The position numbers and the translations under genes are program-made. DNA of 64,000 nt from an uncultured Lentimicrobiaceae bacterium (lineage in GTDB: Bacteria > Bacteroidota > Bacteroidia > Bacteroidales > F082): contig CAZQBU010000004.1 of assembly GCA_964592175.1 (NCBI GenBank), forward strand, positions 21,412-85,411. Direction: 5' to 3'. Below the pieces are notes generated by a model. It was given only the letters and a program-made list of their open reading frames with translations. It was not told the DNA's origin and made no database searches. Positions 6,459-20,037 of the stretch are shown piece after piece (the stretch's first letter is position 1; each line of letters opens with the position of its first letter).

Positions 6459-7973
6459 TCAATTCGGTTTGCTTTTATCCTTTTGCATTGATTCTGTTGC
6501 GGTAAGCAAAAGTTCTTTCAAGCTCTTGATATGAATCATCCGCGTAACAAAAATCAATACGAAGGCTACTAGCGTTCCTAGCAAGAAATTAAGCTTCCAG
6601 TCGAATGGTAAAATTTTGCTTCCGAAGGCAACAACAAACAGCAGAGCTGCAAACAAAAAGACTTGTCCTAAAAATCCTTTTTCAAATTTCAGTTTGAAAA
6701 GCCGCTTTGCGATAAAGAATTGAATGATTGCAGTAACAGACTGTACGCTAAAACTTGCCCAAGCTGCTCCAACCGCTTGAAATACCGGAATCAAACTGAA
6801 ATTCAAAGCCAAATTGATGACTACGCCTGTGGCGGCTACCGTGTTTAAAAGTTTTAAATTGCCGTTTGCAGTAAGTAAGGTGCCAAAAATATAGGTTGTT
6901 GAAATTGCCACAAAGCTCCCCATTAATAAACGAAGAATATGTGCCGATTCATGTATCCTCAAGCTGAACTCAGTTATGCTTTCTCCTTCACGCATGCCGT
7001 ATAACAGCGCCATCAGTTCATTACTGAAAGCAATTGATATCACTGCAACCAAAAGCGACATGCTAAGCATAATTCGAAACGACAACTGTACCAGCTGATT
7101 TACCGACTCATTCTTTTTTATCATTGAAGAAAACATAGGTAATAGCAGCACTGAAAACAGCAGTGAGATATTATTTCCTGCATCCATTAGGCGGAATGCT
7201 TTGCCGTAAATTCCCGTTTGTACATCACCTATTCCTTTTGGAAGCAATCGTTCGATAAGTACCGGCTCTAAGCGGTTGTAGAAGCTCATTAGCAGCACCA
7301 GCAACGCAAAAGGCAAGCTTTTGCGTATAATCATCAGCATAAACGGATAATTAAGCCGGAGACGGATTTTGCCCGAATGCTTTAAAACAAAGAGCAGAGC
7401 AGCAACGAGGGTGATAAGGTATGCTGCGGTTTGAGCATATACAAACCATTCAATTTGGAATTTACCCGGCATAATACCCGACCACAACAAGATGCTACAT
7501 ATGAGAATCATTAAAAGGCGGTCCAGCACCGAGAAAAAACTGTCGACACTAAATAGCAATAAGCCGCTTATGTTGGAGCGCAGATACAAAATAAACGAAA
7601 GCAACACCTGATTAAATCCGAGCCAAGCAAGCAGGTAAAGCTGCTGCCCTCTATAACCGATTGCCAAGCCAATTGCAAAAATAACAATGCCGTATAGCAA
7701 GCTTAGTAGGATTTTCAAACCGGAGATGCCGGCAAAATGCTTTGAAAGTAATTGGCTGTTTTGGGCAATATTTCTGTTGTTGAAATTTGTAATGCCCATA
7801 TCCAACACGATGGTAAATAAGAAGCTGAAGCTTAAAATCGACAAATAAATACCGTAAGCGCTATCGCCTACTATATTTTGCACACTCCTGTCAATGCCTA
7901 AAATCCAAAATGGTTTTATCAGCAGATTAAGTGATAACAGCAAAATAAGATTCTTGATAAACTGCTTTTGCAT
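6459..7973 (-). CDS. Oligosaccharide/polysaccharide flippase (Wzx-like, MOP superfamily)
   Basis: 504 aa, about 12-14 TM helices, and an N-terminus (FIKNLILLLSLNLLIKPFWILGIDRSVQN) typical of polysaccharide biosynthesis flippases. It lies in a polysaccharide gene cluster. Confidence 0.7.
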   Translation of the reverse strand: MQKQFIKNLILLLSLNLLIKPFWILGIDRSVQNIVGDSAYGIYLSILSFSFLFTIVLDMGITNFNNRNIAQNSQLLSKHFAGISGLKILLSLLYGIVIFAIGLAIGYRGQQLYLLAWLGFNQVLLSFILYLRSNISGLLLFSVDSFFSVLDRLLMILICSILLWSGIMPGKFQIEWFVYAQTAAYLITLVAALLFVLKHSGKIRLRLNYPFMLMIIRKSLPFALLVLLMSFYNRLEPVLIERLLPKGIGDVQTGIYGKAFRLMDAGNNISLLFSVLLLPMFSSMIKKNESVNQLVQLSFRIMLSMSLLVAVISIAFSNELMALLYGMREGESITEFSLRIHESAHILRLLMGSFVAISTTYIFGTLLTANGNLKLLNTVAATGVVINLALNFSLIPVFQAVGAAWASFSVQSVTAIIQFFIAKRLFKLKFEKGFLGQVFLFAALLFVVAFGSKILPFDWKLNFLLGTLVAFVLIFVTRMIHIKSLKELLLTATESMQKDKSKPN

Positions 7974-11601: not shown

Positions 11602-12200
11602 GTCAGCTTTTGGCATATTTTCAATCTGAACTACTCGAAGCCGGCTTGGATGAGGCCGGTAGGGGATGCCTTGCAGGTCCTGTGGTAGCTGCTGCGGTAA
11701 TCCTTCCGCATGATTTTGACCATCCTCGCCTGAACGACTCCAAAAAGCTGAGCGCCCTACATCGCTTGGAACTTCGTGAAGAAATCATTGCGCATGCAAT
11801 CAGCTATGGGATTGGATATGCAAGCGTGGATGAAATTGATGATATCAATATATTAAATGCTTCTTTCCTAGCCATGCATCGTGCTTTGGAGCAGCTGCAA
11901 CAAAAGCCGGAGCTGCTGCTAGTGGATGGGAACCGCTTTCGAAATCAAACCGAAATACCGTATCAATGTATTGTGGGCGGTGATGCAAAATATCGTAGCA
12001 TAGCAGCTGCCTCCATATTGGCAAAAGTGGCACGCGATACACTGATGGAACAGCTTGATGAAGAGTTTCCGCACTACAATTGGAAGCAAAATAAAGGCTA
12101 TCCCACCAAAGCACATAAACAAGCTATTGCAGCCCACGGCAGATGCATACATCACAGGAGAAGCTTTAATGTAGGCGAACAATTGCGCATCCAAATCTGA
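11598..12200 (+). CDS. rnhB: Ribonuclease HII
   Basis: 200 aa. [15 protein letters not shown] catalytic DEAGRG motif, DSKKLS, and a LLVDGN block. Confidence 0.9.
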
Positions 12201-12322
12201 TGAAGTTTGCTGTCGCAGCTTGTTTTTATAGTATGATTTCTTTGTGCTTTAATCTGATAAAATAAATTTATCAAAATCCGTAAAATTTTTTTGCAAAATG
12301 TATTGGTGTGAATGTAAAACTG

Positions 12323-12330
12323 TAAATTTG
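12323..12330 (+). promoter_or_regulatory. Possible Bacteroidota -7 promoter box (TAAATTTG, consensus TAnnTTTG)
   Basis: Exact match to TAnnTTTG, 44 nt upstream of the ATG at 12374. The -33 TTTG partner is not convincing. Confidence 0.25.
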
Positions 12331-12373
12331 TAGCACAAATAAAACCTAGTAGAACATTTAAAATCACCAAATT

Positions 12374-12883
12374 ATGAACAAACAGTTAATGAAAATGATT
12401 TCGCTTTTGTTAGCGACTTCAGTTTTACTGGCAAGTTGTGGCAGCACAACCATGATTCACTCTGATCCAAGTGGTGCAAAACTTTATCTTAATGGTGAGC
12501 CGGTAGGAACCACGCCATACTCTCACCGTGATACCAAAATAGTTGGAAGCACGACGATGGTAAAACTGGAAAAGGAAGGATACGAACCTTTAAACACCTC
12601 ATTTTCAAGAGATGAGGAAGTTGATGTAGGTGCAATTATTGGTGGGCTTTTTGTTTTAGTTCCATTTTTGTGGACCATGAAATATAAGCCGACACATACC
12701 TATGAGCTGATACCAAGTTCGAATTACGAACACTTACAAATTGAAACAGATTTACAGCAAACCGAATTCAGATCAAAAGCTGAAAGGCTGCGAGAACTAA
12801 AACAGCTTCTTGATGAAAATATCCTCACACAAGAAGAGTATGAAAAAGAAAAGGCAAAAATCTTGCAAGAAGACGAGAATTAA
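12374..12883 (+). CDS. Lipoprotein with PEGA domain and C-terminal SHOCT domain
   Basis: Lipobox LLASCGS. SDPSGAKLYLNGEPVGTTPY is a PEGA motif. There is an internal TM, and the C-terminal RLRELKQLLDENILTQEEYEKEKAKIL is a SHOCT-type motif. Confidence 0.6.
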   Translation: MNKQLMKMISLLLATSVLLASCGSTTMIHSDPSGAKLYLNGEPVGTTPYSHRDTKIVGSTTMVKLEKEGYEPLNTSFSRDEEVDVGAIIGGLFVLVPFLWTMKYKPTHTYELIPSSNYEHLQIETDLQQTEFRSKAERLRELKQLLDENILTQEEYEKEKAKILQEDEN

Positions 12884-12929
12884 ATCTTGATGAAACAAAA
12901 AAACAAAAATTAAAGGGGGTTTAAGTTAT

Positions 12930-12967
12930 CAGGGGTTTAAAATCCAATGTTTAAACCTCTGTTTTTT
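12930..12967 (+). terminator. Rho-independent terminator
   Basis: Stem AGGGGTTTAAA / TTTAAACCTCT with one mismatch and an 8-nt loop, followed by GTTTTTTT. Confidence 0.5.
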
Positions 12968-13102
12968 TATCCTCCCATAAAACCAAAATTACTTACATAT
13001 TTTGAACCTAATATTGTGGAAAATTGGATATTAGGTACAAAGAAAAATGTTAAAAATATCACAAATTAAAAATTTCATGATTATTTTAAATAGCTTTGTA
13101 TT

Positions 13103-14239
13103 GTGAGTACAAGAATTGAAAATATAAACAAAGATATTATTGAATGGGCTATCATCAGAAATGGTTTTAGCTTAGAGGAGTTTTATGCCCAAAATCCAAC
13201 TGTTGAGAGTTGGATTAAAGGAGAGAAATTTCCAACAATAAAGCAATTAGAAAGTTTTACTCACAAAGTTCACGTACCTTTTGGATATATGTTTCTTCCA
13301 GCCCCACCTGAAGAAAATATTTCTTTGCCATTTTTTAGAACTGCTCAGAAAAAAAGTACAAATAAGGTAAGTTTAAATGTATATCATACTATTCAAATGA
13401 TTCAGGATCGACAAAATTGGTTGACTGAATATTTAGATGAATTAGATTTTCCTGATTTGGAATTTGTAGGAAGATTTTCTGAAAGAGATAGTTATAAAGA
13501 AATAGTTGCTGATATAAGAAAAACATTGCAGATTGATTTAGATTGGGCATCCAAGTTTAGTAATTGGGAACAAACTTTAGATCATTTAACGGATAAAATT
13601 GAAGAAGCAGGAATTATTGTGACTTTCAATGGTGTTGTCGGTACTAATCCGCATAGAGTTATTGATGTAAATGAGTGTCGGGGGTTTGTGTTAGTGAATA
13701 ATAAAGCACCTTTTTTGTTTATTAATTCCAGTGATGCAAAAGCTGCTCAAATGTTCACTTTAATACATGAATTAGCACATGTTTGGTTAGGAGAAAGTGC
13801 TGGTTTTGATAATGAAAATATGCTTCCGGCATCCAATCCAATAGAAATAATATGCGACAAAGTTGCAGCGGAGTTTTTAGTTCCTGAGACTTATCTACTC
13901 CAAAGATGGCAAATGAATAAAGATTTTAAAGCCTTAAGTAGAATTTTTAAAGTTAGCCAAATTGTTATTGCCAGAAGAGCCTTGGACTTAGAGCTTATTA
14001 ATTTGACTGAATTTCAGTCTTTTTATAATAAATATATGCTTGACTTCAAGCAAAGACAGAGTAATCAAGCTTCCGGTGGAAACTTTTATGCTACGATGAA
14101 AAAAAGAACAAGTCTAAGATTTGCAGCTTTTGTGGACAATGCCGTGAAAGAAAACAAACTTTTATATAGGGATGCATATAAACTGACCAATATGAAAGCG
14201 TCAACTTATAATAAATTCATTCTAAAGCATTTGTACTAA
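13103..14239 (+). CDS. ImmA/IrrE-family zinc metallopeptidase with N-terminal HTH-like region
   Basis: 378 aa with a GTG start. HEXXH motif LIHELAHVWLGES (His222 codon at 13766), followed by AAEFLVP, a block typical of the DUF955/ImmA fold. The gene is visibly AT-rich. Confidence 0.8.
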   Translation: MSTRIENINKDIIEWAIIRNGFSLEEFYAQNPTVESWIKGEKFPTIKQLESFTHKVHVPFGYMFLPAPPEENISLPFFRTAQKKSTNKVSLNVYHTIQMIQDRQNWLTEYLDELDFPDLEFVGRFSERDSYKEIVADIRKTLQIDLDWASKFSNWEQTLDHLTDKIEEAGIIVTFNGVVGTNPHRVIDVNECRGFVLVNNKAPFLFINSSDAKAAQMFTLIHELAHVWLGESAGFDNENMLPASNPIEIICDKVAAEFLVPETYLLQRWQMNKDFKALSRIFKVSQIVIARRALDLELINLTEFQSFYNKYMLDFKQRQSNQASGGNFYATMKKRTSLRFAAFVDNAVKENKLLYRDAYKLTNMKASTYNKFILKHLY

Positions 14240-14736
14240 TGAGTAAGTTCTTGTTAGATAGTAATGTTTTTATTCAAGCCTACCGAATGCATTATCCTTT
14301 TGATGTGGTTCCTGGTTTTTGGAATAAATTGCTGGAATTATCTAAGCGCGATATAATTTTGAGTATTGATAAAGTAAAGAAAGAAATTTGTTATAGTGAA
14401 AAACAGGACGACTTAGCCTTATGGTGCATTAATTCAGTTGACAAAGAGTTTTTTGTTGACACTTCTTCATGTATTGACGAATATGCTGAACTTGCTAATT
14501 GGATAAATTCAAATAAACATTATACGCAAACTGCAAAAGCGGAATTTTTGAAAACAGATTTAGCTGACCCTTGGTTAATTGCCTACGTTAAAAAACACGA
14601 TTATATAATTGTAACTTACGAGCTTAGTCAACCAGGCAGGAAAAATATCATCAAAATTCCGGAACCTTGTCTTCATTTTGGTATCAAAAACCTATCACCT
14701 ATACAAATGTTTAGACAATTAGGCGAAACATTTTGA
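14239..14736 (+). CDS. DUF4411-family PIN-like nuclease
   Basis: 165 aa. The N-terminal KFLLDSNVFIQAYRMHYPFDVVPGFW matches the DUF4411 consensus as I remember it, with a PIN-like acidic Asp. The start overlaps the ImmA stop (TAATG). Confidence 0.7.
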   Translation: MSKFLLDSNVFIQAYRMHYPFDVVPGFWNKLLELSKRDIILSIDKVKKEICYSEKQDDLALWCINSVDKEFFVDTSSCIDEYAELANWINSNKHYTQTAKAEFLKTDLADPWLIAYVKKHDYIIVTYELSQPGRKNIIKIPEPCLHFGIKNLSPIQMFRQLGETF

Positions 14737-14888
14737 AATCACTGCAATACTCCTGATTCCTTTTATTTCATAAAATAGATCAAACAAAAAAAACAGCCCG
14801 GCATCTCCACCAAAACACATTTTGACCACAGCCATAATGAAACTTTCTTTATTTTTACAGAAACTTATACTGTGCAAAGTGTTTTCAG

Positions 14889-17800
14889 ATGATTTTAAAA
14901 CTTTTAAAGCCGAGAAAGGCATTAAATAAAGCCTTTTTAAAACTAAAACCTGTACGAAGCGATATCGAGCGCTTCAAAGCAAACCTGATTAACTTATTAG
15001 ACAAAATCAATGATGCCGAAAGCGAAGAATATCATAAAAACTTGCTTTCCGACTTCTTGAAAAACACTTATTACGAGCCGGCACATTTTATCAATACCAA
15101 AGGGCGTAACGATTTGGTGATTCATAACGGGAAAAGCCCTGCCAGTACCGTAGCTGTAATCCTAGAAACCAAAAAGCCTACCAATAAATCCGAGATGATT
15201 AGTGCTACCAAGCTGAATGTGAAAGCATTTCATGAGTTGGTGCTCTATTATATGCGCGAGCGAATTCAGTTGAAAAACTTGGAGATACGGCATTTAGTCG
15301 CAAGCAATATTTATGAATGGTATGTATTTGATGCCATTGATTTTGACCGTTTATTTGCACAAAATAAATCCTTTGTACAACAGTTTACCGATTTTGAAAA
15401 TGGCAGATTGGCGGATACGACCACCGATTTCTTTTATAATCAAATTGCAGCCCCTTTTATTGATTCAATAGGTTCAGAAATATTATGTACTCGATTTTAT
15501 CTGTCTGATTATCAGGAATTATTACATGCAACAGACAGAGAAGGCGATAAAAAACTGATTGCATTGTATAAGTTGTTATCTCCCGAGCATTTGCTGAAGC
15601 TTCCTTTCGTGAATGACAGCAATACCTTGGATAAACGCTTTTATGATGAGCTGCTTCATATCATCGGACTTACCGAAACCAAAGATGGCGGAAAGAAAGT
15701 CATTGGTCGCAACGCCGAAGCGAAACGAAATCCGGGCTCATTATTGGAAAATGCCATTGCACAATTGGACAGCCTTGATAAAATCAGTCGCTTGGAAAAG
15801 CCTGCTCGATATGGCGATAATTTACAAGAACGCTTTTTTAATGTGGCGCTTGAGCTTTGCATCAGCTGGATGAACCGTATTTTGTTTTTGAAACTATTGG
15901 AAGCGCAGCTGCTAAGCTATCATAATGGAGATACATCGTATGGCTTTTTAAATAGCGATAAAATTCAAAATTATGACGATTTAAACAGCTTGTTTTTTCA
16001 AGTGCTGGCACGTAAATACGAAGATAGGGACACCGAAGTATTGAAACAATTTGGCAAAGTTCCTTATTTAAACAGCTCTTTGTTTGAGCCTAGTGAATTA
16101 GAACATGACACCCTGTTTATCAGTAATCTACGTGATGAGCGTCAGCTGCCAATTTATGGCTCTACCGTTTTAAAAGACAGCTTGGGACGTAAAAAGACAG
16201 GTAGCTTAGCGGCTTTGGAATATCTTTTTGAGTTTTTGGATGCCTACGACTTCAGCAGCGAAGGCTCGGAAGATATTCAGGAAGAAAATAAAACCCTGAT
16301 TAACGCATCGGTGCTGGGACTTATTTTTGAAAAAATAAACGGCTACAAAGACGGCTCTTTCTTCACGCCCGGATTTATCACCATGTATATGTGCCGCGAA
16401 ACCATCCGTCGTGCCGTAGTACAGAAATTTAACGAAACCAAAGGCTGGAACTGTAGCGGATTGGATGAAATTTACGATAAAATAGAAGACCGTGATGAAG
16501 CAAACCGGATTGTAAACAGCATTAAAATTGTGGATCCTGCAGTAGGCTCCGGGCATTTCTTGGTTTCGGCACTAAATGAGATTATTGCTACAAAAAGCGA
16601 TTTAAAAATCTTGCAAGACCGCAATGGCAGGCGGCTTAAGGAGTATCATGTGGAAGTGGTAAACGATGAGCTGATTGTTACCGATGAAGACGCTGAATTG
16701 TTTGAATACAATCCTGCCAGCCCCGAAAGCCGGCGCGTGCAGGAAGCCCTTTTTCATGAAAAGCAAAGCATCATTGAAAACTGCTTATTTGGCGTGGATA
16801 TCAATAACAATTCGGTGAAAATATGCCGTTTGAGACTATGGATTGAATTATTGAAAAACGCATATTACAAGCCGGAAACCTTGTTAAACGGCAGTCTTCC
16901 TCAGTTGGAAACCTTGCCAAATATTGATATTAATATCAAGCAGGGTAATTCTTTGGTAAGCCGCTTCGCCTTGGATGCCGATTTGCGCCAAGCCTTGAAA
17001 AAGAGCAAGTGGAGCATTGAAAGCTATCGCTTGGCAGTGTCAAGCTACCGCAATGCGCGTAACAGGGAAGAAAAACGCGATATGGCAAGGCTGATACAAG
17101 CGATAAAAACCGACTTCCGCAGCGAAATTACCGAGAACGACCCTAAAGCAAAACGGCTGTATAAGTTACGTGGCGAACTGGTGAATCTGACCACACAACC
17201 TGAGCTTTTTGACCTGAATAAAAAAGAATTAGAACGCTGGAACAAGCAAGTTGAGGACCTTAGTTCCGATATACAAAAGCTGGAAGATGAAATTGAAGAA
17301 ATAAAAAGCAATAAAATTTACGAAAACGCTTTTGAATGGCGTTTTGAATTCCCCGAAGTGCTGAATGACGAAGGAGAATTTGTAGGCTTTGATGTGGTGA
17401 TTGGGAATCCTCCGTATATCAGGCAGGAGGAAATAAAAGAATTTAAGCCGTTTTTTAAATCTCACTATAAGCTTTATACGGGTACATCAGATATTTACAT
17501 TTTCTTTATAGAGAAAGGTTTTGAGATACTCAAACATCAAGGTTTGTTTACTTATATTATGCCTAATAAATTTATGCAGACTGGATACGGTAAACCGGCA
17601 AGAAAATATCTGTTAGAACAAAATTTAAAAGAGATTATTGATTTTGGCGATTTTCAGGTATTTGAAGAGGCAACTACTTATCCATTAATTCTAATGGCAG
17701 AAAAGAACAGTCCGGAAAGCGATTTTAAAACAGTGAAGATTAATTCGCCCGACTTTTCAATAGATTTTCCGCTTTATGTTGAAGAAAATAGCAATATCAT

Positions 17801-18665
17801 TGAGCACAAGTCCCTAAATGATGAAACTTGGATAATATCAAATGCAGCGGAGCAATCAATCTTAAATAAAATAGCATTCAAGTCTGAAAAATTGGAAGAT
17901 TATATCCATAATATAGCCAAATATGGAATTAAAACAGGATTAACAGAAGCATTTGTTATTGATTCAGTGCATGCTGAAGAGATATTGGCGACTCACAATA
18001 ATTATGAAAACCATCTATATCCCTTTTTACTCGGTAGAGAAGCTAAACCATATGTTGTAGAAGAACCATCAAAATATTTAATCAAGTTTGAAAAGGGATT
18101 TACTAATAGCGTGTTTTCAGGTAATCCGGAAAACTGGTTTATGAGTGAGTTTGAAGAGATATATAAACACTTGATTCAATTTAAAGATAGAGCAATTAAA
18201 AGAACAGATAAGGGTGATTATTATTGGGAGCTGAGAGCTTGTGATTATTATGATTTGTTTGATAAACCAAAAATAATGTATCAAAGATTCCAAGTAAAAC
18301 CATGTTTTATTTTTGATGAATCCGGCTTGTATTGTAATGATTCTATGTGGATAATCCCTTCTGATGATATGGTCTTACTTGGTATATTAAACTCAAAAAT
18401 GGGTTGGTGGTTAATTTCAAAATACTGCACAGCTATTCAAAATGGGTATCAATTGATTTGGAAATATTTTAGTCAAATTCCTATCGCTATAGGAAACGAG
18501 CCAATAAGGAATGAAATAAAATCACGTGTAAATTCAATCATCGATCTCAAAAAAGAAGATTCAACTGCCGACATTATTACTCTTGAAGCAGAAATCGACC
18601 AATTGGTTTATGAACTTTATGGTTTAAATGAAGAGGAAATCGCAATAGTAGAAAACGCAATATAA
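14889..18665 (+). CDS. Type IIG restriction-modification enzyme (PD-ExK nuclease + gamma-class N6-adenine methyltransferase + target-recognition region, Eco57I-like)
   Basis: 1258 aa. Nuclease motif D75 ... E93-T-K95 (NDLVIH...VILETKKP, 15111-15173). AdoMet motif VDPAVGSGHF (16530-16559). Catalytic motif VIGNPPYIRQEE (NPPY at 17406-17417). The C-terminal third resembles a TaqI-like specificity domain. Confidence 0.85.
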   Translation: MILKLLKPRKALNKAFLKLKPVRSDIERFKANLINLLDKINDAESEEYHKNLLSDFLKNTYYEPAHFINTKGRNDLVIHNGKSPASTVAVILETKKPTNKSEMISATKLNVKAFHELVLYYMRERIQLKNLEIRHLVASNIYEWYVFDAIDFDRLFAQNKSFVQQFTDFENGRLADTTTDFFYNQIAAPFIDSIGSEILCTRFYLSDYQELLHATDREGDKKLIALYKLLSPEHLLKLPFVNDSNTLDKRFYDELLHIIGLTETKDGGKKVIGRNAEAKRNPGSLLENAIAQLDSLDKISRLEKPARYGDNLQERFFNVALELCISWMNRILFLKLLEAQLLSYHNGDTSYGFLNSDKIQNYDDLNSLFFQVLARKYEDRDTEVLKQFGKVPYLNSSLFEPSELEHDTLFISNLRDERQLPIYGSTVLKDSLGRKKTGSLAALEYLFEFLDAYDFSSEGSEDIQEENKTLINASVLGLIFEKINGYKDGSFFTPGFITMYMCRETIRRAVVQKFNETKGWNCSGLDEIYDKIEDRDEANRIVNSIKIVDPAVGSGHFLVSALNEIIATKSDLKILQDRNGRRLKEYHVEVVNDELIVTDEDAELFEYNPASPESRRVQEALFHEKQSIIENCLFGVDINNNSVKICRLRLWIELLKNAYYKPETLLNGSLPQLETLPNIDINIKQGNSLVSRFALDADLRQALKKSKWSIESYRLAVSSYRNARNREEKRDMARLIQAIKTDFRSEITENDPKAKRLYKLRGELVNLTTQPELFDLNKKELERWNKQVEDLSSDIQKLEDEIEEIKSNKIYENAFEWRFEFPEVLNDEGEFVGFDVVIGNPPYIRQEEIKEFKPFFKSHYKLYTGTSDIYIFFIEKGFEILKHQGLFTYIMPNKFMQTGYGKPARKYLLEQNLKEIIDFGDFQVFEEATTYPLILMAEKNSPESDFKTVKINSPDFSIDFPLYVEENSNIIEHKSLNDETWIISNAAEQSILNKIAFKSEKLEDYIHNIAKYGIKTGLTEAFVIDSVHAEEILATHNNYENHLYPFLLGREAKPYVVEEPSKYLIKFEKGFTNSVFSGNPENWFMSEFEEIYKHLIQFKDRAIKRTDKGDYYWELRACDYYDLFDKPKIMYQRFQVKPCFIFDESGLYCNDSMWIIPSDDMVLLGILNSKMGWWLISKYCTAIQNGYQLIWKYFSQIPIAIGNEPIRNEIKSRVNSIIDLKKEDSTADIITLEAEIDQLVYELYGLNEEEIAIVENAI

Positions 18666-18705
18666 GCCCTATACAATTGCGTATGAATAACTTAGTGCAT
18701 CTTTA

Positions 18706-20037
18706 TCAAATCGTCTTTTTCCGCCAGCTTCCTTTTTTTAGGTAGAGATAGGATAAAATGGTGAGTAGTATGCCGTAAACTATTTCTGTAATCCAAGCGA
18801 CAGTTACATTCGCGTTGAAATGATAAATAGCCACATACACAAATAGTACATAAATGGGTATCACCACTGCTTCAATTAAAAACGAAACAGTTGTTTTTCC
18901 GGTGCCCATCACCCCGTTGAACAATATATTCCCCGAGGCTAAAAATATGGAGCTAATTCCTATCACCTTAAGCGGTCCTATGCTTTGTTTTATCAGCTCG
19001 CTATCATTGGTATAAACTTGAAGAATAAAATCCGGGAAGATAAACGACAAGCTGACAAGTATTCCTACTCCAACTATTGCCATCAATTCGATTCTTCGTA
19101 ACAGCAAAAATACCATATCGGACTTTTTCATGCCAATCAAATAGCTTACCATGGAGTTGGATGCGGCTGCAAAACCCCAAATCGGAATCATCAATACGAT
19201 GTATACGCTTCGGATGATATTAGAAACTGCCAATGCTTGTTCGCCTAATTTTTCAACAAACAAGAAAAAGCTAAACCATACGGCAAATGAAAAGAAATTT
19301 TGCACCATAATGGGTACGGCAAGGCGTGAGCTTCTGTTGAACAGCTTGCGGTCAAACCCACTAAACTTATACATCCCAAACTCTTTATGGTGCTTTTTAA
19401 GCTGTACATAGCCCATCAGATACACAAAAGTCACCCCTTCTGCTATGGTGGAGGCGAGGGCAGCCCCTTCCACGCCCATTTCCGGGAAGCCGAACTTTCC
19501 AAAGATAAGTGCATAATCCAAAAAGATATTCACCACTGCCATCACCACCGTGCTCCAGGTGATTATTTTCGTTTGGGCTATCCCTACATAAAATGCTCGA
19601 AAGATTACTTGTCCCGCCGCGAAAAATATCCCGTACATGCGGTAATTTAAAAAGCGCACCGAAGCCTTATATACTTCAGTCGAATCAATTACAAGCCGCA
19701 GTATAGGGTCGCCTAAGTATTTCATTATCAAGAAGCTGATAAGTGCGACCGGAATCATGAAATAAATGGCATGGTCAAAACTTTTCCCGATTAAATGTTT
19801 CCTTCCCTCACCAAATCGGCGCGACATCATAATTTGAAGTCCTGTTCCAAAGCCCATGCCAACAGTAAACAAGATCAAATAAAACATGCCGCCCAAGGCA
19901 GCAGCACCCAGCTCAATTTCTCCCACACGACCTAAAAATGCCGTGTCGGTCACATTTATGAGATTTTGGGCAACGCTACCCAAAATAATCGGGTAGGCGA
20001 TGGTCCAAATGCGCTTATAACTAATGTTTACTGCCAA
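18706..20037 (-). CDS. MATE-family efflux transporter
   Basis: 443 aa with 12 TM helices. N-terminal IWTIAYPIILGSVAQNLINVTDTAFLGRVG is typical of the MATE family. Confidence 0.85.
   Translation of the reverse strand: MAVNISYKRIWTIAYPIILGSVAQNLINVTDTAFLGRVGEIELGAAALGGMFYLILFTVGMGFGTGLQIMMSRRFGEGRKHLIGKSFDHAIYFMIPVALISFLIMKYLGDPILRLVIDSTEVYKASVRFLNYRMYGIFFAAGQVIFRAFYVGIAQTKIITWSTVVMAVVNIFLDYALIFGKFGFPEMGVEGAALASTIAEGVTFVYLMGYVQLKKHHKEFGMYKFSGFDRKLFNRSSRLAVPIMVQNFFSFAVWFSFFLFVEKLGEQALAVSNIIRSVYIVLMIPIWGFAAASNSMVSYLIGMKKSDMVFLLLRRIELMAIVGVGILVSLSFIFPDFILQVYTNDSELIKQSIGPLKVIGISSIFLASGNILFNGVMGTGKTTVSFLIEAVVIPIYVLFVYVAIYHFNANVTVAWITEIVYGILLTILSYLYLKKGSWRKKTI

Follow-up and report, generated by a model that had tools for sequence, protein, structure and literature searches.

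A predicted VapBC52-type toxin–antitoxin pair lacking the cysteine switch in an uncultured Lentimicrobiaceae bacterium

VapBC52 (Rv2515c/Rv2514c) of Mycobacterium tuberculosis (PDB 9vzy and 9vzz; Singh et al., NAR June 2026, PMC13273310) is the sole characterised member of a toxin–antitoxin (TA) family in which an unusually large antitoxin with a peptidase domain is paired with a DUF4411 PIN toxin. Here we describe a gene pair from an uncultured Lentimicrobiaceae bacterium that very probably is a TA module of the same type. The pair lies in a 64,000-nt stretch of contig CAZQBU010000004.1; this whole stretch is called the window, and all positions are given in its numbering. VapC52 is a PIN RNase that cuts tRNAs in the anticodon or variable loop, and its activity requires D6, E48, D99 and E117, mutation of which abolishes it (PMC13273310). 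VapB52 (46 kDa) holds a VapC52 dimer in a 1:2 complex, in which the Xre-like domain at its N-terminus makes up interface I and the helices at its C-terminus block the active site (PMC13273310). The M78 peptidase of VapB52 is turned on by single-stranded DNA (ssDNA) and cleaves the protein it belongs to at a conserved F-R motif, removing the N-terminal domain, and in the complex a 'cysteine switch', C229, fills the fourth zinc position (PMC13273310).

The family had been foreseen from genome comparisons. Makarova et al. (2009, PMC2701414) predicted a TA function for fused Xre-COG2856 proteins linked with PIN toxins and named Rv2515c among them. Matelska et al. (2017, PMC5499597) described DUF4411.1 genes downstream of helix-turn-helix (HTH)-DUF955 fusions as a potential TA system. 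In TASmania (2019, PMC6504116), Rv2514c was found to be toxic in M. smegmatis and Rv2515c to rescue the cells, and the NetFlax study of Ernits et al. (2023, PMC10440598) associated ImmA/Rosmer-type antitoxin nodes with PIN-like toxins. A preliminary description of the window had already recognised a two-gene TA-type module composed of an ImmA/IrrE-family (M78) protease-HTH protein and a PIN-like DUF4411 nuclease, and our analysis bears this out. Its statement that such a pairing has no experimentally defined mechanism has been overtaken by the literature, with predictions in 2009 and 2017, toxicity and rescue in 2019, and structure and mechanism in 2026.

The features of the locus are collected in Table 1. 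The antitoxin gene (open reading frame (ORF) A) precedes the toxin gene (ORF B), and the two have one base in common in a TAATG stop/start overlap, which we read as translational coupling. The ORF coordinates, this overlap, the HEXXH motif (HELAH) and the toxin motif LLDSNVF were all found where the preliminary description had placed them.

The toxin, which begins with MSKFLLDSNVF, matched the Pfam family DUF4411 (PF14367) over the full length of the model (8.4e-44; residues 4-165 on model positions 1-159 of 159). When compared with the DUF4411 chain of 9vzy (VapC52), the single sequence gave an E-value of 0.18 and the family profile one of 6.6e-12; the pairwise identity is 20%. The residues D7, E49, D110 and E128, which align with the four catalytic residues of VapC52, were invariant in 30 homologues of the toxin. 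An AlphaFold2 (AF2) model was obtained with a predicted local distance difference test score (pLDDT) of 88.9, and its nearest Foldseek matches were tRNA-cleaving VapC toxins (VapC11, VapC5 3h87, Shigella VapC) and the PIN-like RNase P HARP. On the strength of alignment and model, the toxin is predicted to be a PIN-fold DUF4411 nuclease with a complete acidic tetrad.

The antitoxin matched Pfam Peptidase_M78 (PF06114) at residues 199-293 (5.9e-15), so that both families named in the preliminary description were recovered by Pfam. In a PDB sequence search, it matched the 393-residue 'HTH cro/C1-type domain-containing protein' chain of 9vzy (4.2e-10), the one entry found with homologues of both window proteins, and its family profile aligned with chain A of 9vzy over all three domains (5.9e-43, positions 8-379 on residues 2-385). 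The pairwise identity with VapB52 is 23%. The HTH-like N-terminus received no Pfam call; it is supported by family-profile matches to C.Csp231I (E 0.008) and MBF1 (E 0.002), by the homology to VapB52, and by Foldseek, in which the N-terminal five-helix bundle matched C.Csp231I, the BldD DNA-binding domain and an Xre antitoxin (probability 0.9-0.98). In the AF2 model of the antitoxin, five helices at the N-terminus are followed by a linker of low confidence (residues 78-87) with the F-R motif, then by a peptidase/HTH core and four helices at the C-terminus. Its Foldseek neighbours were IrrE (3dti), M. tuberculosis PrpR (6cz6/6d2s), PprI bound to ssDNA (8sln) and, for the N-terminal domain, C.Csp231I (4jcy). 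Three of them (IrrE 3dti, PrpR 6d2s and C.Csp231I 4jcy) are also listed for VapB52 in PMC13273310; this structural likeness to VapBC52 is an indirect one, via common neighbours, as 9vzy is not among the entries of the Foldseek PDB library (cut-off April 2026).

The two elements on which self-cleavage of VapB52 depends, a zinc peptidase and an F-R motif, both have counterparts in the window antitoxin. H222, E223 and H226 of the HELAH motif, together with E248, were invariant in the antitoxin family alignment, and so was R79 of the predicted cleavage site. A simple pattern search found [F/L/Y]-R in 297 of 321 relatives (FR in 287, LR in 6, YR in 4). The segment falls into the linker with the lowest confidence of the whole AF2 model (pLDDT <50 at residues 78-87). 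Since CapP cuts CapH between F82 and R83 (preprint work on CapP), F78|R79 is plausible as a site for the peptidase of the antitoxin.

Table 1. Positions of the gene pair, its predicted functional residues and the surrounding signals in the window.
Feature	Position	Strand	Remarks
Antitoxin gene (ORF A)	13103..14239	+	GTG start, 378 aa, VapB52-like
Toxin gene (ORF B)	14239..14736	+	ATG start, 165 aa, DUF4411 PIN-like RNase (predicted)
TAATG stop/start overlap	14237..14241	+	TAA 14237-14239 of ORF A, ATG 14239-14241 of ORF B, one base in common
Antitoxin N-terminal Xre-like five-helix domain	~residues 1-73	+	predicted from homology, AF2 and Foldseek
Antitoxin flexible linker with F78-R79 motif	between N-terminal and middle domains	+	predicted from homology and AF2
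Antitoxin middle domain, M78 peptidase and HTH motif	~residues 91-320	+	predicted from homology and AF2
Antitoxin C-terminal four-helix domain	~residues 328-378	+	predicted from homology and AF2
F78-R79, predicted self-cleavage site	13334..13339	+	aligns with VapB52 F75-R76; matches CapH F82|R83
HELAH zinc/catalytic motif (H222, E223, H226)	13766..13780	+	residues 222-226; HExxH in 321/321 relatives
F235, aligned with VapB52 cysteine-switch residue C229	13805..13807	+	Phe, not Cys
E248, predicted third zinc ligand (VapB52 E245)	13844..13846	+	ExxC[DN] motif in 320/321 relatives
Toxin catalytic residues (predicted)	D7 14257-14259; E49 14383-14385; D110 14566-14568; E128 14620-14622	+	aligned with VapC52 D6/E48/D99/E117
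Terminator-like hairpin and T run	12930..12961	+	12-bp stem, 8-nt loop, TTTTTTTATC tail; 3' of the PEGA/SHOCT lipoprotein gene
Bacteroidota sigma-A -7 box TAGCTTTG (consensus TAnnTTTG)	13091..13098	+	exactly 4 nt before the GTG
Possible eroded left cassette end	13046..13058	+	AAATGTTAAAAAT aligns with ...TAATGTTAAAAC after the GTTATGGG repeat in L005/L002; weak evidence
Probable eroded right cassette end	14739..14747	+	AATCACTGC = first 9 nt of AATCACTGCCCATAAC, the right boundary repeat of the closest relative
Type IIG restriction-modification gene	14889..18665	+	152 nt downstream of the toxin gene, intact

The distribution of the pair was analyzed in GTDB with one genome per species. The best 80 of 349 toxin relatives were kept and, together with 15 loci from IMG/VR, gave a set of 95 loci. 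The 80 genomic loci were mostly from Bacteroidota (Flavobacterium, Chryseobacterium, Maribacter, Aquimarina, Pedobacter, Cytophagales). In 94 of the 95 toxin loci an antitoxin homologue was located directly upstream on the same strand, and the single exception was cut by the end of the contig. The pairing is far beyond chance, and the co-occurrence survey suggested in the preliminary description thus establishes the pair as a conserved unit. At the gene junction, a 4-nt overlap of the ATGA type was present in 47 loci and a 1-nt overlap in 14, and the distance was between -4 and +9 nt in 90/94. Clustering of 1252 neighbouring genes revealed no third gene common to the genomic loci.

The gene neighbourhoods also bear on the Type IIG restriction-modification (R-M) gene, the intact gene next to the pair that the preliminary description had correctly located. 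Homologues of it were present in none of the 95 related loci, and in a PADLOC tally of the 136 immediate neighbours Type IIG systems occurred three times; Type I S, Type IV and mad were found twice each, and no family more than three times. Therefore, the position of the R-M gene is incidental: the module is autonomous and mobile, and the adjacency is a co-location, not a conserved functional link.

When 1.84 billion representative proteins were searched with a profile, 5277 clusters (50% identity) with toxin relatives were found at E <= 0.001, and 2429 at <= 1e-10. The cluster representatives were about 160-175 aa long in almost all of the 150 matches listed. Homologues were also found on 34 plasmids and in 2 phage records, and PHROG families exist for both proteins. 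Among the IMG/VR loci, L083-L087 contain the TA pair and, alongside it, a conserved block of eight or more neighbour genes, and their toxin is 36% identical to that of the window; they represent one prophage-like element carrying the module. As to base composition, the pair had a lower G+C content (GC) than the flanking DNA in 55 of 59 loci, with a mean difference of 5 points. The window agrees with this, and with the AT-richness noted in the preliminary description: the pair has 32.1% GC compared to 41.3% in the housekeeping flanks, and the low-GC tract spans ~12700 to 15100.

Compared with the described systems, the locus is closest to VapBC52. Both have the order antitoxin-then-toxin, a DUF4411 PIN toxin whose four acidic catalytic residues agree, and an unusually large antitoxin with full-length homology, including the Xre-like N-terminus, the F-R linker, HExxH plus Glu, an HTH motif and a four-helix C-terminus. 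They differ in that one comes from Actinobacteria and the other from Bacteroidota, with the low identities given above, that C229 is replaced by Phe in the window, and that the window genes overlap and have a -7 box abutting the start codon.

RosmerTA (RmrT/RmrA; Millman et al. 2022; Ernits et al. 2023, PMC10440598) likewise pairs an HTH plus M78/ImmA antitoxin with a toxin. Indeed, 13 RmrA models of PADLOC matched the antitoxin, the best at 3.4e-17 over residues 33-310, these being models without a curated cut-off. However, the window toxin matched no RmrT model, and Rosmer toxins are unrelated to it (one of them, for example, is membrane-depolarising). Rosmer gene order is also variable, and DUF4411 pairs have no known defence phenotype when the antitoxin is present. 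No PADLOC family at all matched the toxin at E <= 0.1, and PADLOC would therefore report no system at this locus; of the PADLOC check proposed in the preliminary description, the antitoxin half gave matches, while the toxin half and the system as a whole did not. With more than 5000 clusters at 50% identity and PADLOC v2.0.0 still lacking a toxin model, surveys of defence or TA systems can miss this family.

CapP/CapH and IrrE(PprI)/DdrO have in common with the antitoxin the peptidase fold, the zinc site and a cut before an Arg that follows a hydrophobic residue (CapH F82|R83), and IrrE, like the window antitoxin, has no cysteine switch. In contrast to the window pair, they cleave a separate HTH repressor in trans and control transcription, and a GAF domain forms the ssDNA groove; in both CapP and IrrE this groove lies between the peptidase and GAF domains (CapP preprint). 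The window antitoxin unites the peptidase and its predicted substrate in one protein, has no GAF domain, and would have the release of a nuclease as its output. Membership in CapP/CapH was not found either: the capP model matched residues 188-297 only (2e-10), and neither a GAF domain nor an adjacent small HTH gene was present. Canonical VapBC systems, with a PF01850 toxin and a small RHH/AbrB/Phd antitoxin (RHH, ribbon-helix-helix), resemble the pair in the PIN fold, the probable tRNA-directed RNase activity and the bicistronic arrangement with the antitoxin first. They differ in that the window toxin belongs to a separate Pfam family, DUF4411, that the antitoxin is a 378-aa protein with an enzymatic domain instead of an 8-13 kDa DNA-binding protein, and that neutralisation is expected to be asymmetric (1:2). 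ImmA/ImmR of ICEBs1 and prophages share the M78 peptidase family and the proteolytic inactivation of an HTH domain, but the window has no separate ImmR gene and no context of an integrative and conjugative element (ICE) or prophage, and the partner is a nuclease toxin. With the NCBIfam spr1629-family repressor/antitoxin model (NF052239) the antitoxin scored 38.4 bits, far from the curated cut-off of 335 bits. The window pair is a distant, switch-less Bacteroidota member of a known TA family with a published mechanism, and it should be annotated as a VapBC52-type (HTH-M78 antitoxin / DUF4411 PIN toxin) TA system and not as an unknown system.

Transferred to the window pair, the VapBC52 model would work as follows. 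The antitoxin would bind a toxin dimer, with its N-terminal domain gripping the outer face and its C-terminal domain plugging the active site. A stress signal, by analogy with VapB52, CapP and IrrE possibly ssDNA produced when DNA is damaged or a phage replicates, would activate the M78 peptidase. The peptidase would then cut its own linker at F78|R79, and the toxin-binding N-terminal domain would be lost. The freed Mg2+-dependent RNase would cleave tRNAs in their anticodon or variable loops, translation would stop, and the outcome would be growth arrest or abortive infection. A sensor protease that gates a nuclease effector, as suggested in the preliminary description, agrees with the published model. 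The ImmA-like cleavage of a separate repressor, which was also invoked there, does not: VapB52 cuts its own N-terminal domain at F-R, and this motif is conserved here.

Taken as a whole, we consider it likely that the locus is a self-contained type II VapBC52-type TA operon with release by self-cleavage. The assignment to the VapBC52 type by homology can be made with high confidence. That release by self-cleavage applies to the window pair as it does to VapB52 is somewhat favoured over the opposite. Defence against phage by the native module has a little less than an even chance in our estimate, and ssDNA as the trigger, proposed by analogy, is a tentative assignment that we hold more lightly still.

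Several observations weigh against this interpretation. The antitoxin and toxin are only 23% and 20% identical to the sole characterised member, and the stoichiometry, the trigger and the RNA targets given above are extrapolations from it. The AF2 model of the antitoxin, a prediction for a single chain, reached only moderate confidence (pLDDT 74.6). With regard to phage defence, over-expression of VapC52 alone protected M. smegmatis from phage D29, whereas co-expression of VapB52 and VapC52 did not (PMC13273310). The 136 immediate neighbours were mostly housekeeping genes according to Pfam, and the per-family tallies, with a few R-M genes among them, did not demonstrate enrichment in defence islands. 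Finally, C229 explains ssDNA gating in VapB52/CapP, and a Cys within 18 residues after HExxH was found in 0/321 relatives; a GAF domain was not detected in the antitoxin by Pfam either.

As the cysteine switch is missing, gating must work in another way than in VapB52, at least as judged from the aligned residues. It may be looser and IrrE-like, relying on substrate positioning or on zinc availability. According to the CapP preprint of 2026, some CapP homologues lack the switch as well, and IrrE, which also lacks it, is active without ssDNA though stimulated by it. For the Bacteroidota members, this means that the F-R motif belongs to the conserved core of the family and the cysteine switch does not, which bears on how the antitoxin is triggered. 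These members also offer a tractable test of whether the intact module, rather than over-expressed toxin, protects against phage.

The pair appears to carry its own expression signals. The hairpin upstream of it (Table 1) is predicted to end the lipoprotein transcript and to insulate the module from read-through. Between the hairpin and the antitoxin gene lies a -7 box, the sole upstream element that was conserved among relatives: the consensus TAnnTTTG occurred 4-6 nt before an in-frame start in 63 of 78 related loci (at exactly 4 nt in 57), compared to 6 among 792 other genes from these loci. The start codon after the box was ATG in 46 and GTG in 17 of the 63 loci; the window has GTG. In Flavobacterium psychrophilum, the -7 box is located at -12 to -5 from the transcription start, and leaderless mRNAs account for 5.5% of the transcripts (PMC9723704). 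Given this position and the conserved spacing of 4 nt, the operon mRNA is predicted to be leaderless and to start with the first base of the start codon, the G of GTG 13103. The spacing of the box also supports GTG 13103 as the true start.

An inverted repeat is present ~60-100 nt upstream of the antitoxin start (13001-13014 / 13028-13041; 14-nt arms, 13/14 complementary, 13 nt apart). It was rejected as a conserved operator, since the best repeats of the relatives differ in both position and sequence. The repeat could be a strain-specific operator or the leftover of a recombination site.

Alignment of the loci revealed that in part of them the module has cassette-like boundaries. In ~18 of the 80 genomic loci, conservation starts 50-75 nt before the antitoxin start, at GTTGTAGGTAATG; the clade nearest to the window has GTTATGGGTAATG as its left boundary repeat. 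Conservation stops 2-6 nt past the toxin stop at the inverted complement, CACTACCTACAAC or CACTGCCCATAAC. Such boundary repeats were found in L002, L005, L007, L011, L023, L034-L036, L043, L046-L048, L050, L056 and L067. Behind the right repeat comes an imperfect palindrome of 55-135 nt with another GTT at its end. When the palindrome was folded as ssDNA together with the first bases of the cassette, it formed a 10-bp outer stem, an asymmetric internal loop, a bulged second stem and a variable tip, with z-scores of -5.6 to -6.7 in 3/5 cases and of -3.0 and -2.5 in the other two. This topology, with AAC...GTT ends, is that of integron attC sites.

Arrays of the element were found in marine Flavobacteriaceae. 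In Algibacter pectinivorans (L042:654-9779), an element of ~130 nt occurs seven times in 10.5 kb in one orientation and separates units of one or two genes, all on the same strand. Wocania (L029:5472-14413) has four copies and Aquimarina litoralis (L039:1521-10507) three. The other units of the arrays hold 1-2 genes as well, for example an EcoRI-like methylase with a 387-aa protein. A tyrosine recombinase was absent from the 25 most frequent Pfam families of 150 flank genes, which were taken within 8 kb and among which single occurrences are possible. In a Flavobacteriaceae metagenome-assembled genome (L008), a 61-nt direct repeat with 87% identity flanks the TA pair (6727-6787; 58-118 nt after the toxin stop), which is another sign of insertion between repeated elements.

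In the window itself, no copy of the repeat element was found, and only short putative boundary remnants are present. At the right end, AATCACTGC lies 2 nt past the toxin stop, compared to 3 nt for the right repeat of L005. A flanking inverted repeat was not above control in the window (10/13 matches vs a shuffled-control mean of 9.7). Self-promoted TA cassettes occur in the chromosomal integrons of Vibrio. An origin as such a cassette would account for the fact that the module has a promoter of its own, and for its scattered distribution. The module is probably a horizontally moving cassette. Integrons have been reported to be very rare in Bacteroidetes, and the cassette-like boundaries and attC-like arrays hint at a cassette-exchange machinery in this phylum. 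A more far-reaching proposal is that the Bacteroidota clade is a switch-less abortive-infection variant with another trigger (a phage protein, or zinc/redox) and a leaderless mRNA, spread as an attC-type cassette by a recombination system undescribed for Flavobacteriia, the window copy being a fossilised cassette; we regard this combination as speculative and rather improbable.

Other explanations of the pair have to be weighed against a VapBC52-type module with self-cleavage release. The most serious alternative to phage defence is addiction, in which the same module would stabilise its DNA segment, be it a cassette array, an island or a plasmid, by post-segregational killing, without phage defence or signal sensing, and the protease would only set the turnover of the antitoxin. 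TA cassettes are known to stabilise the chromosomal integrons of Vibrio. Consistent with such a role, the pair forms one cassette in the attC-like arrays of marine Flavobacteriaceae, the family is found on 34 plasmids, its neighbours are mostly not defence genes, and co-expressed VapBC52 gave no protection against D29. What argues for a dedicated signal input, however, is the ssDNA-triggered self-cleavage of VapB52; moreover, relatives of the antitoxin, namely RmrA of RosmerTA, act in validated defence systems, and the window pair stands beside an R-M gene. We therefore rate addiction as a serious explanation, if an unlikely one. The three-component circuit proposed in 2009, in which the M78 protease would cut a separate target in trans (another Xre repressor or a protein of a phage), with the PIN toxin set free only as a secondary effect, appears considerably less probable. 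ImmA/ImmR, IrrE/DdrO and CapP/CapH all act in trans, and the absence of the Cys switch makes the antitoxin more IrrE-like, but no separate HTH gene is conserved beside the pair in the 95 loci, and VapB52 cleaves itself. An invariant F-R in a disordered linker of the very protein that carries the protease also fits cleavage in cis.

For two further readings we see hardly any room. If the pair were the remnant of a prophage or ICE immunity region, with an ImmA-type anti-repressor and DUF4411 as unrelated cargo, the PHROG families of both proteins and the homologues in 15 IMG/VR contigs and 2 phage records would be accounted for. The preliminary description had allowed for this outcome, with phage genes just outside the pair; none flank it. 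No phage, integrase or conjugation genes were found near the pair when the ORFs of the flanks were inspected with Pfam, no tRNA was detected in the window, and the pair is kept as a unit in 80 chromosomal contexts in different species with unrelated neighbours. Gene context and unit conservation thus already contradict this reading. That the pair serves the Type IIG R-M gene as a controller or an accessory is equally improbable, although it lies 152 nt upstream of this gene on the same strand with no predicted terminator in between, and although its N-terminal domain is structurally similar to C-proteins, resembling C.Csp231I controllers. The equivalent domain of VapB52 binds the toxin, and functional linkage to the R-M gene was rejected on the counts given above (homologues in 0/95 loci, 3/136 immediate neighbours).

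The wider surroundings of the VapBC52-type pair in the window consist of a glycosyltransferase, purD, a membrane protein, RNase HII and the PEGA/SHOCT lipoprotein on the upstream side, and of a MATE pump, an epimerase and an outer-membrane beta-barrel protein on the downstream side. This gene context recurs in two other metagenome assemblies. Scans of the whole window for tRNAs and Rfam families gave no match, and a search for flanking direct repeats or att sites (~12100-19000) returned only short matches at chance level. The PEGA/SHOCT lipoprotein gene (12374-12883) has an intermediate GC of ~0.38, and 80 metagenomic homologues of it (L098-L177) with 54-80% identity were found in variable contexts. 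When these were used to search metagenome contigs for an empty site, none of the 80 loci contained another neighbour gene of the window. In the absence of empty-site relatives, the borders of the insertion rest on composition and on the alignment with relatives.

The purD gene of the window is located 2.5 kb upstream of the pair. In two marine Flavobacteriaceae, a purD gene with 58% identity to it lies ~4-5 kb upstream of the TA pair (L040:1754-3025, L049:556-1827), which may be a coincidence or reflect a common insertion neighbourhood.

The Type IIG R-M protein matched the PADLOC model REase_MTase_IIG over nearly its whole length (9.2e-275, aligned 12-1256 of 1258 aa) and contains the domains DUF7149, DUF7814, Eco57I and TaqI_C, the first two of which are recently defined and make up its N-terminal 470 residues. 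Its gene has a mosaic composition. The middle (15500-17300) has a GC of ~0.39-0.44, and the last ~1400 nt, which encode the N6-methylase catalytic region and the TaqI_C specificity domain, one of 0.30-0.33, suggesting a swapped C-terminal module.

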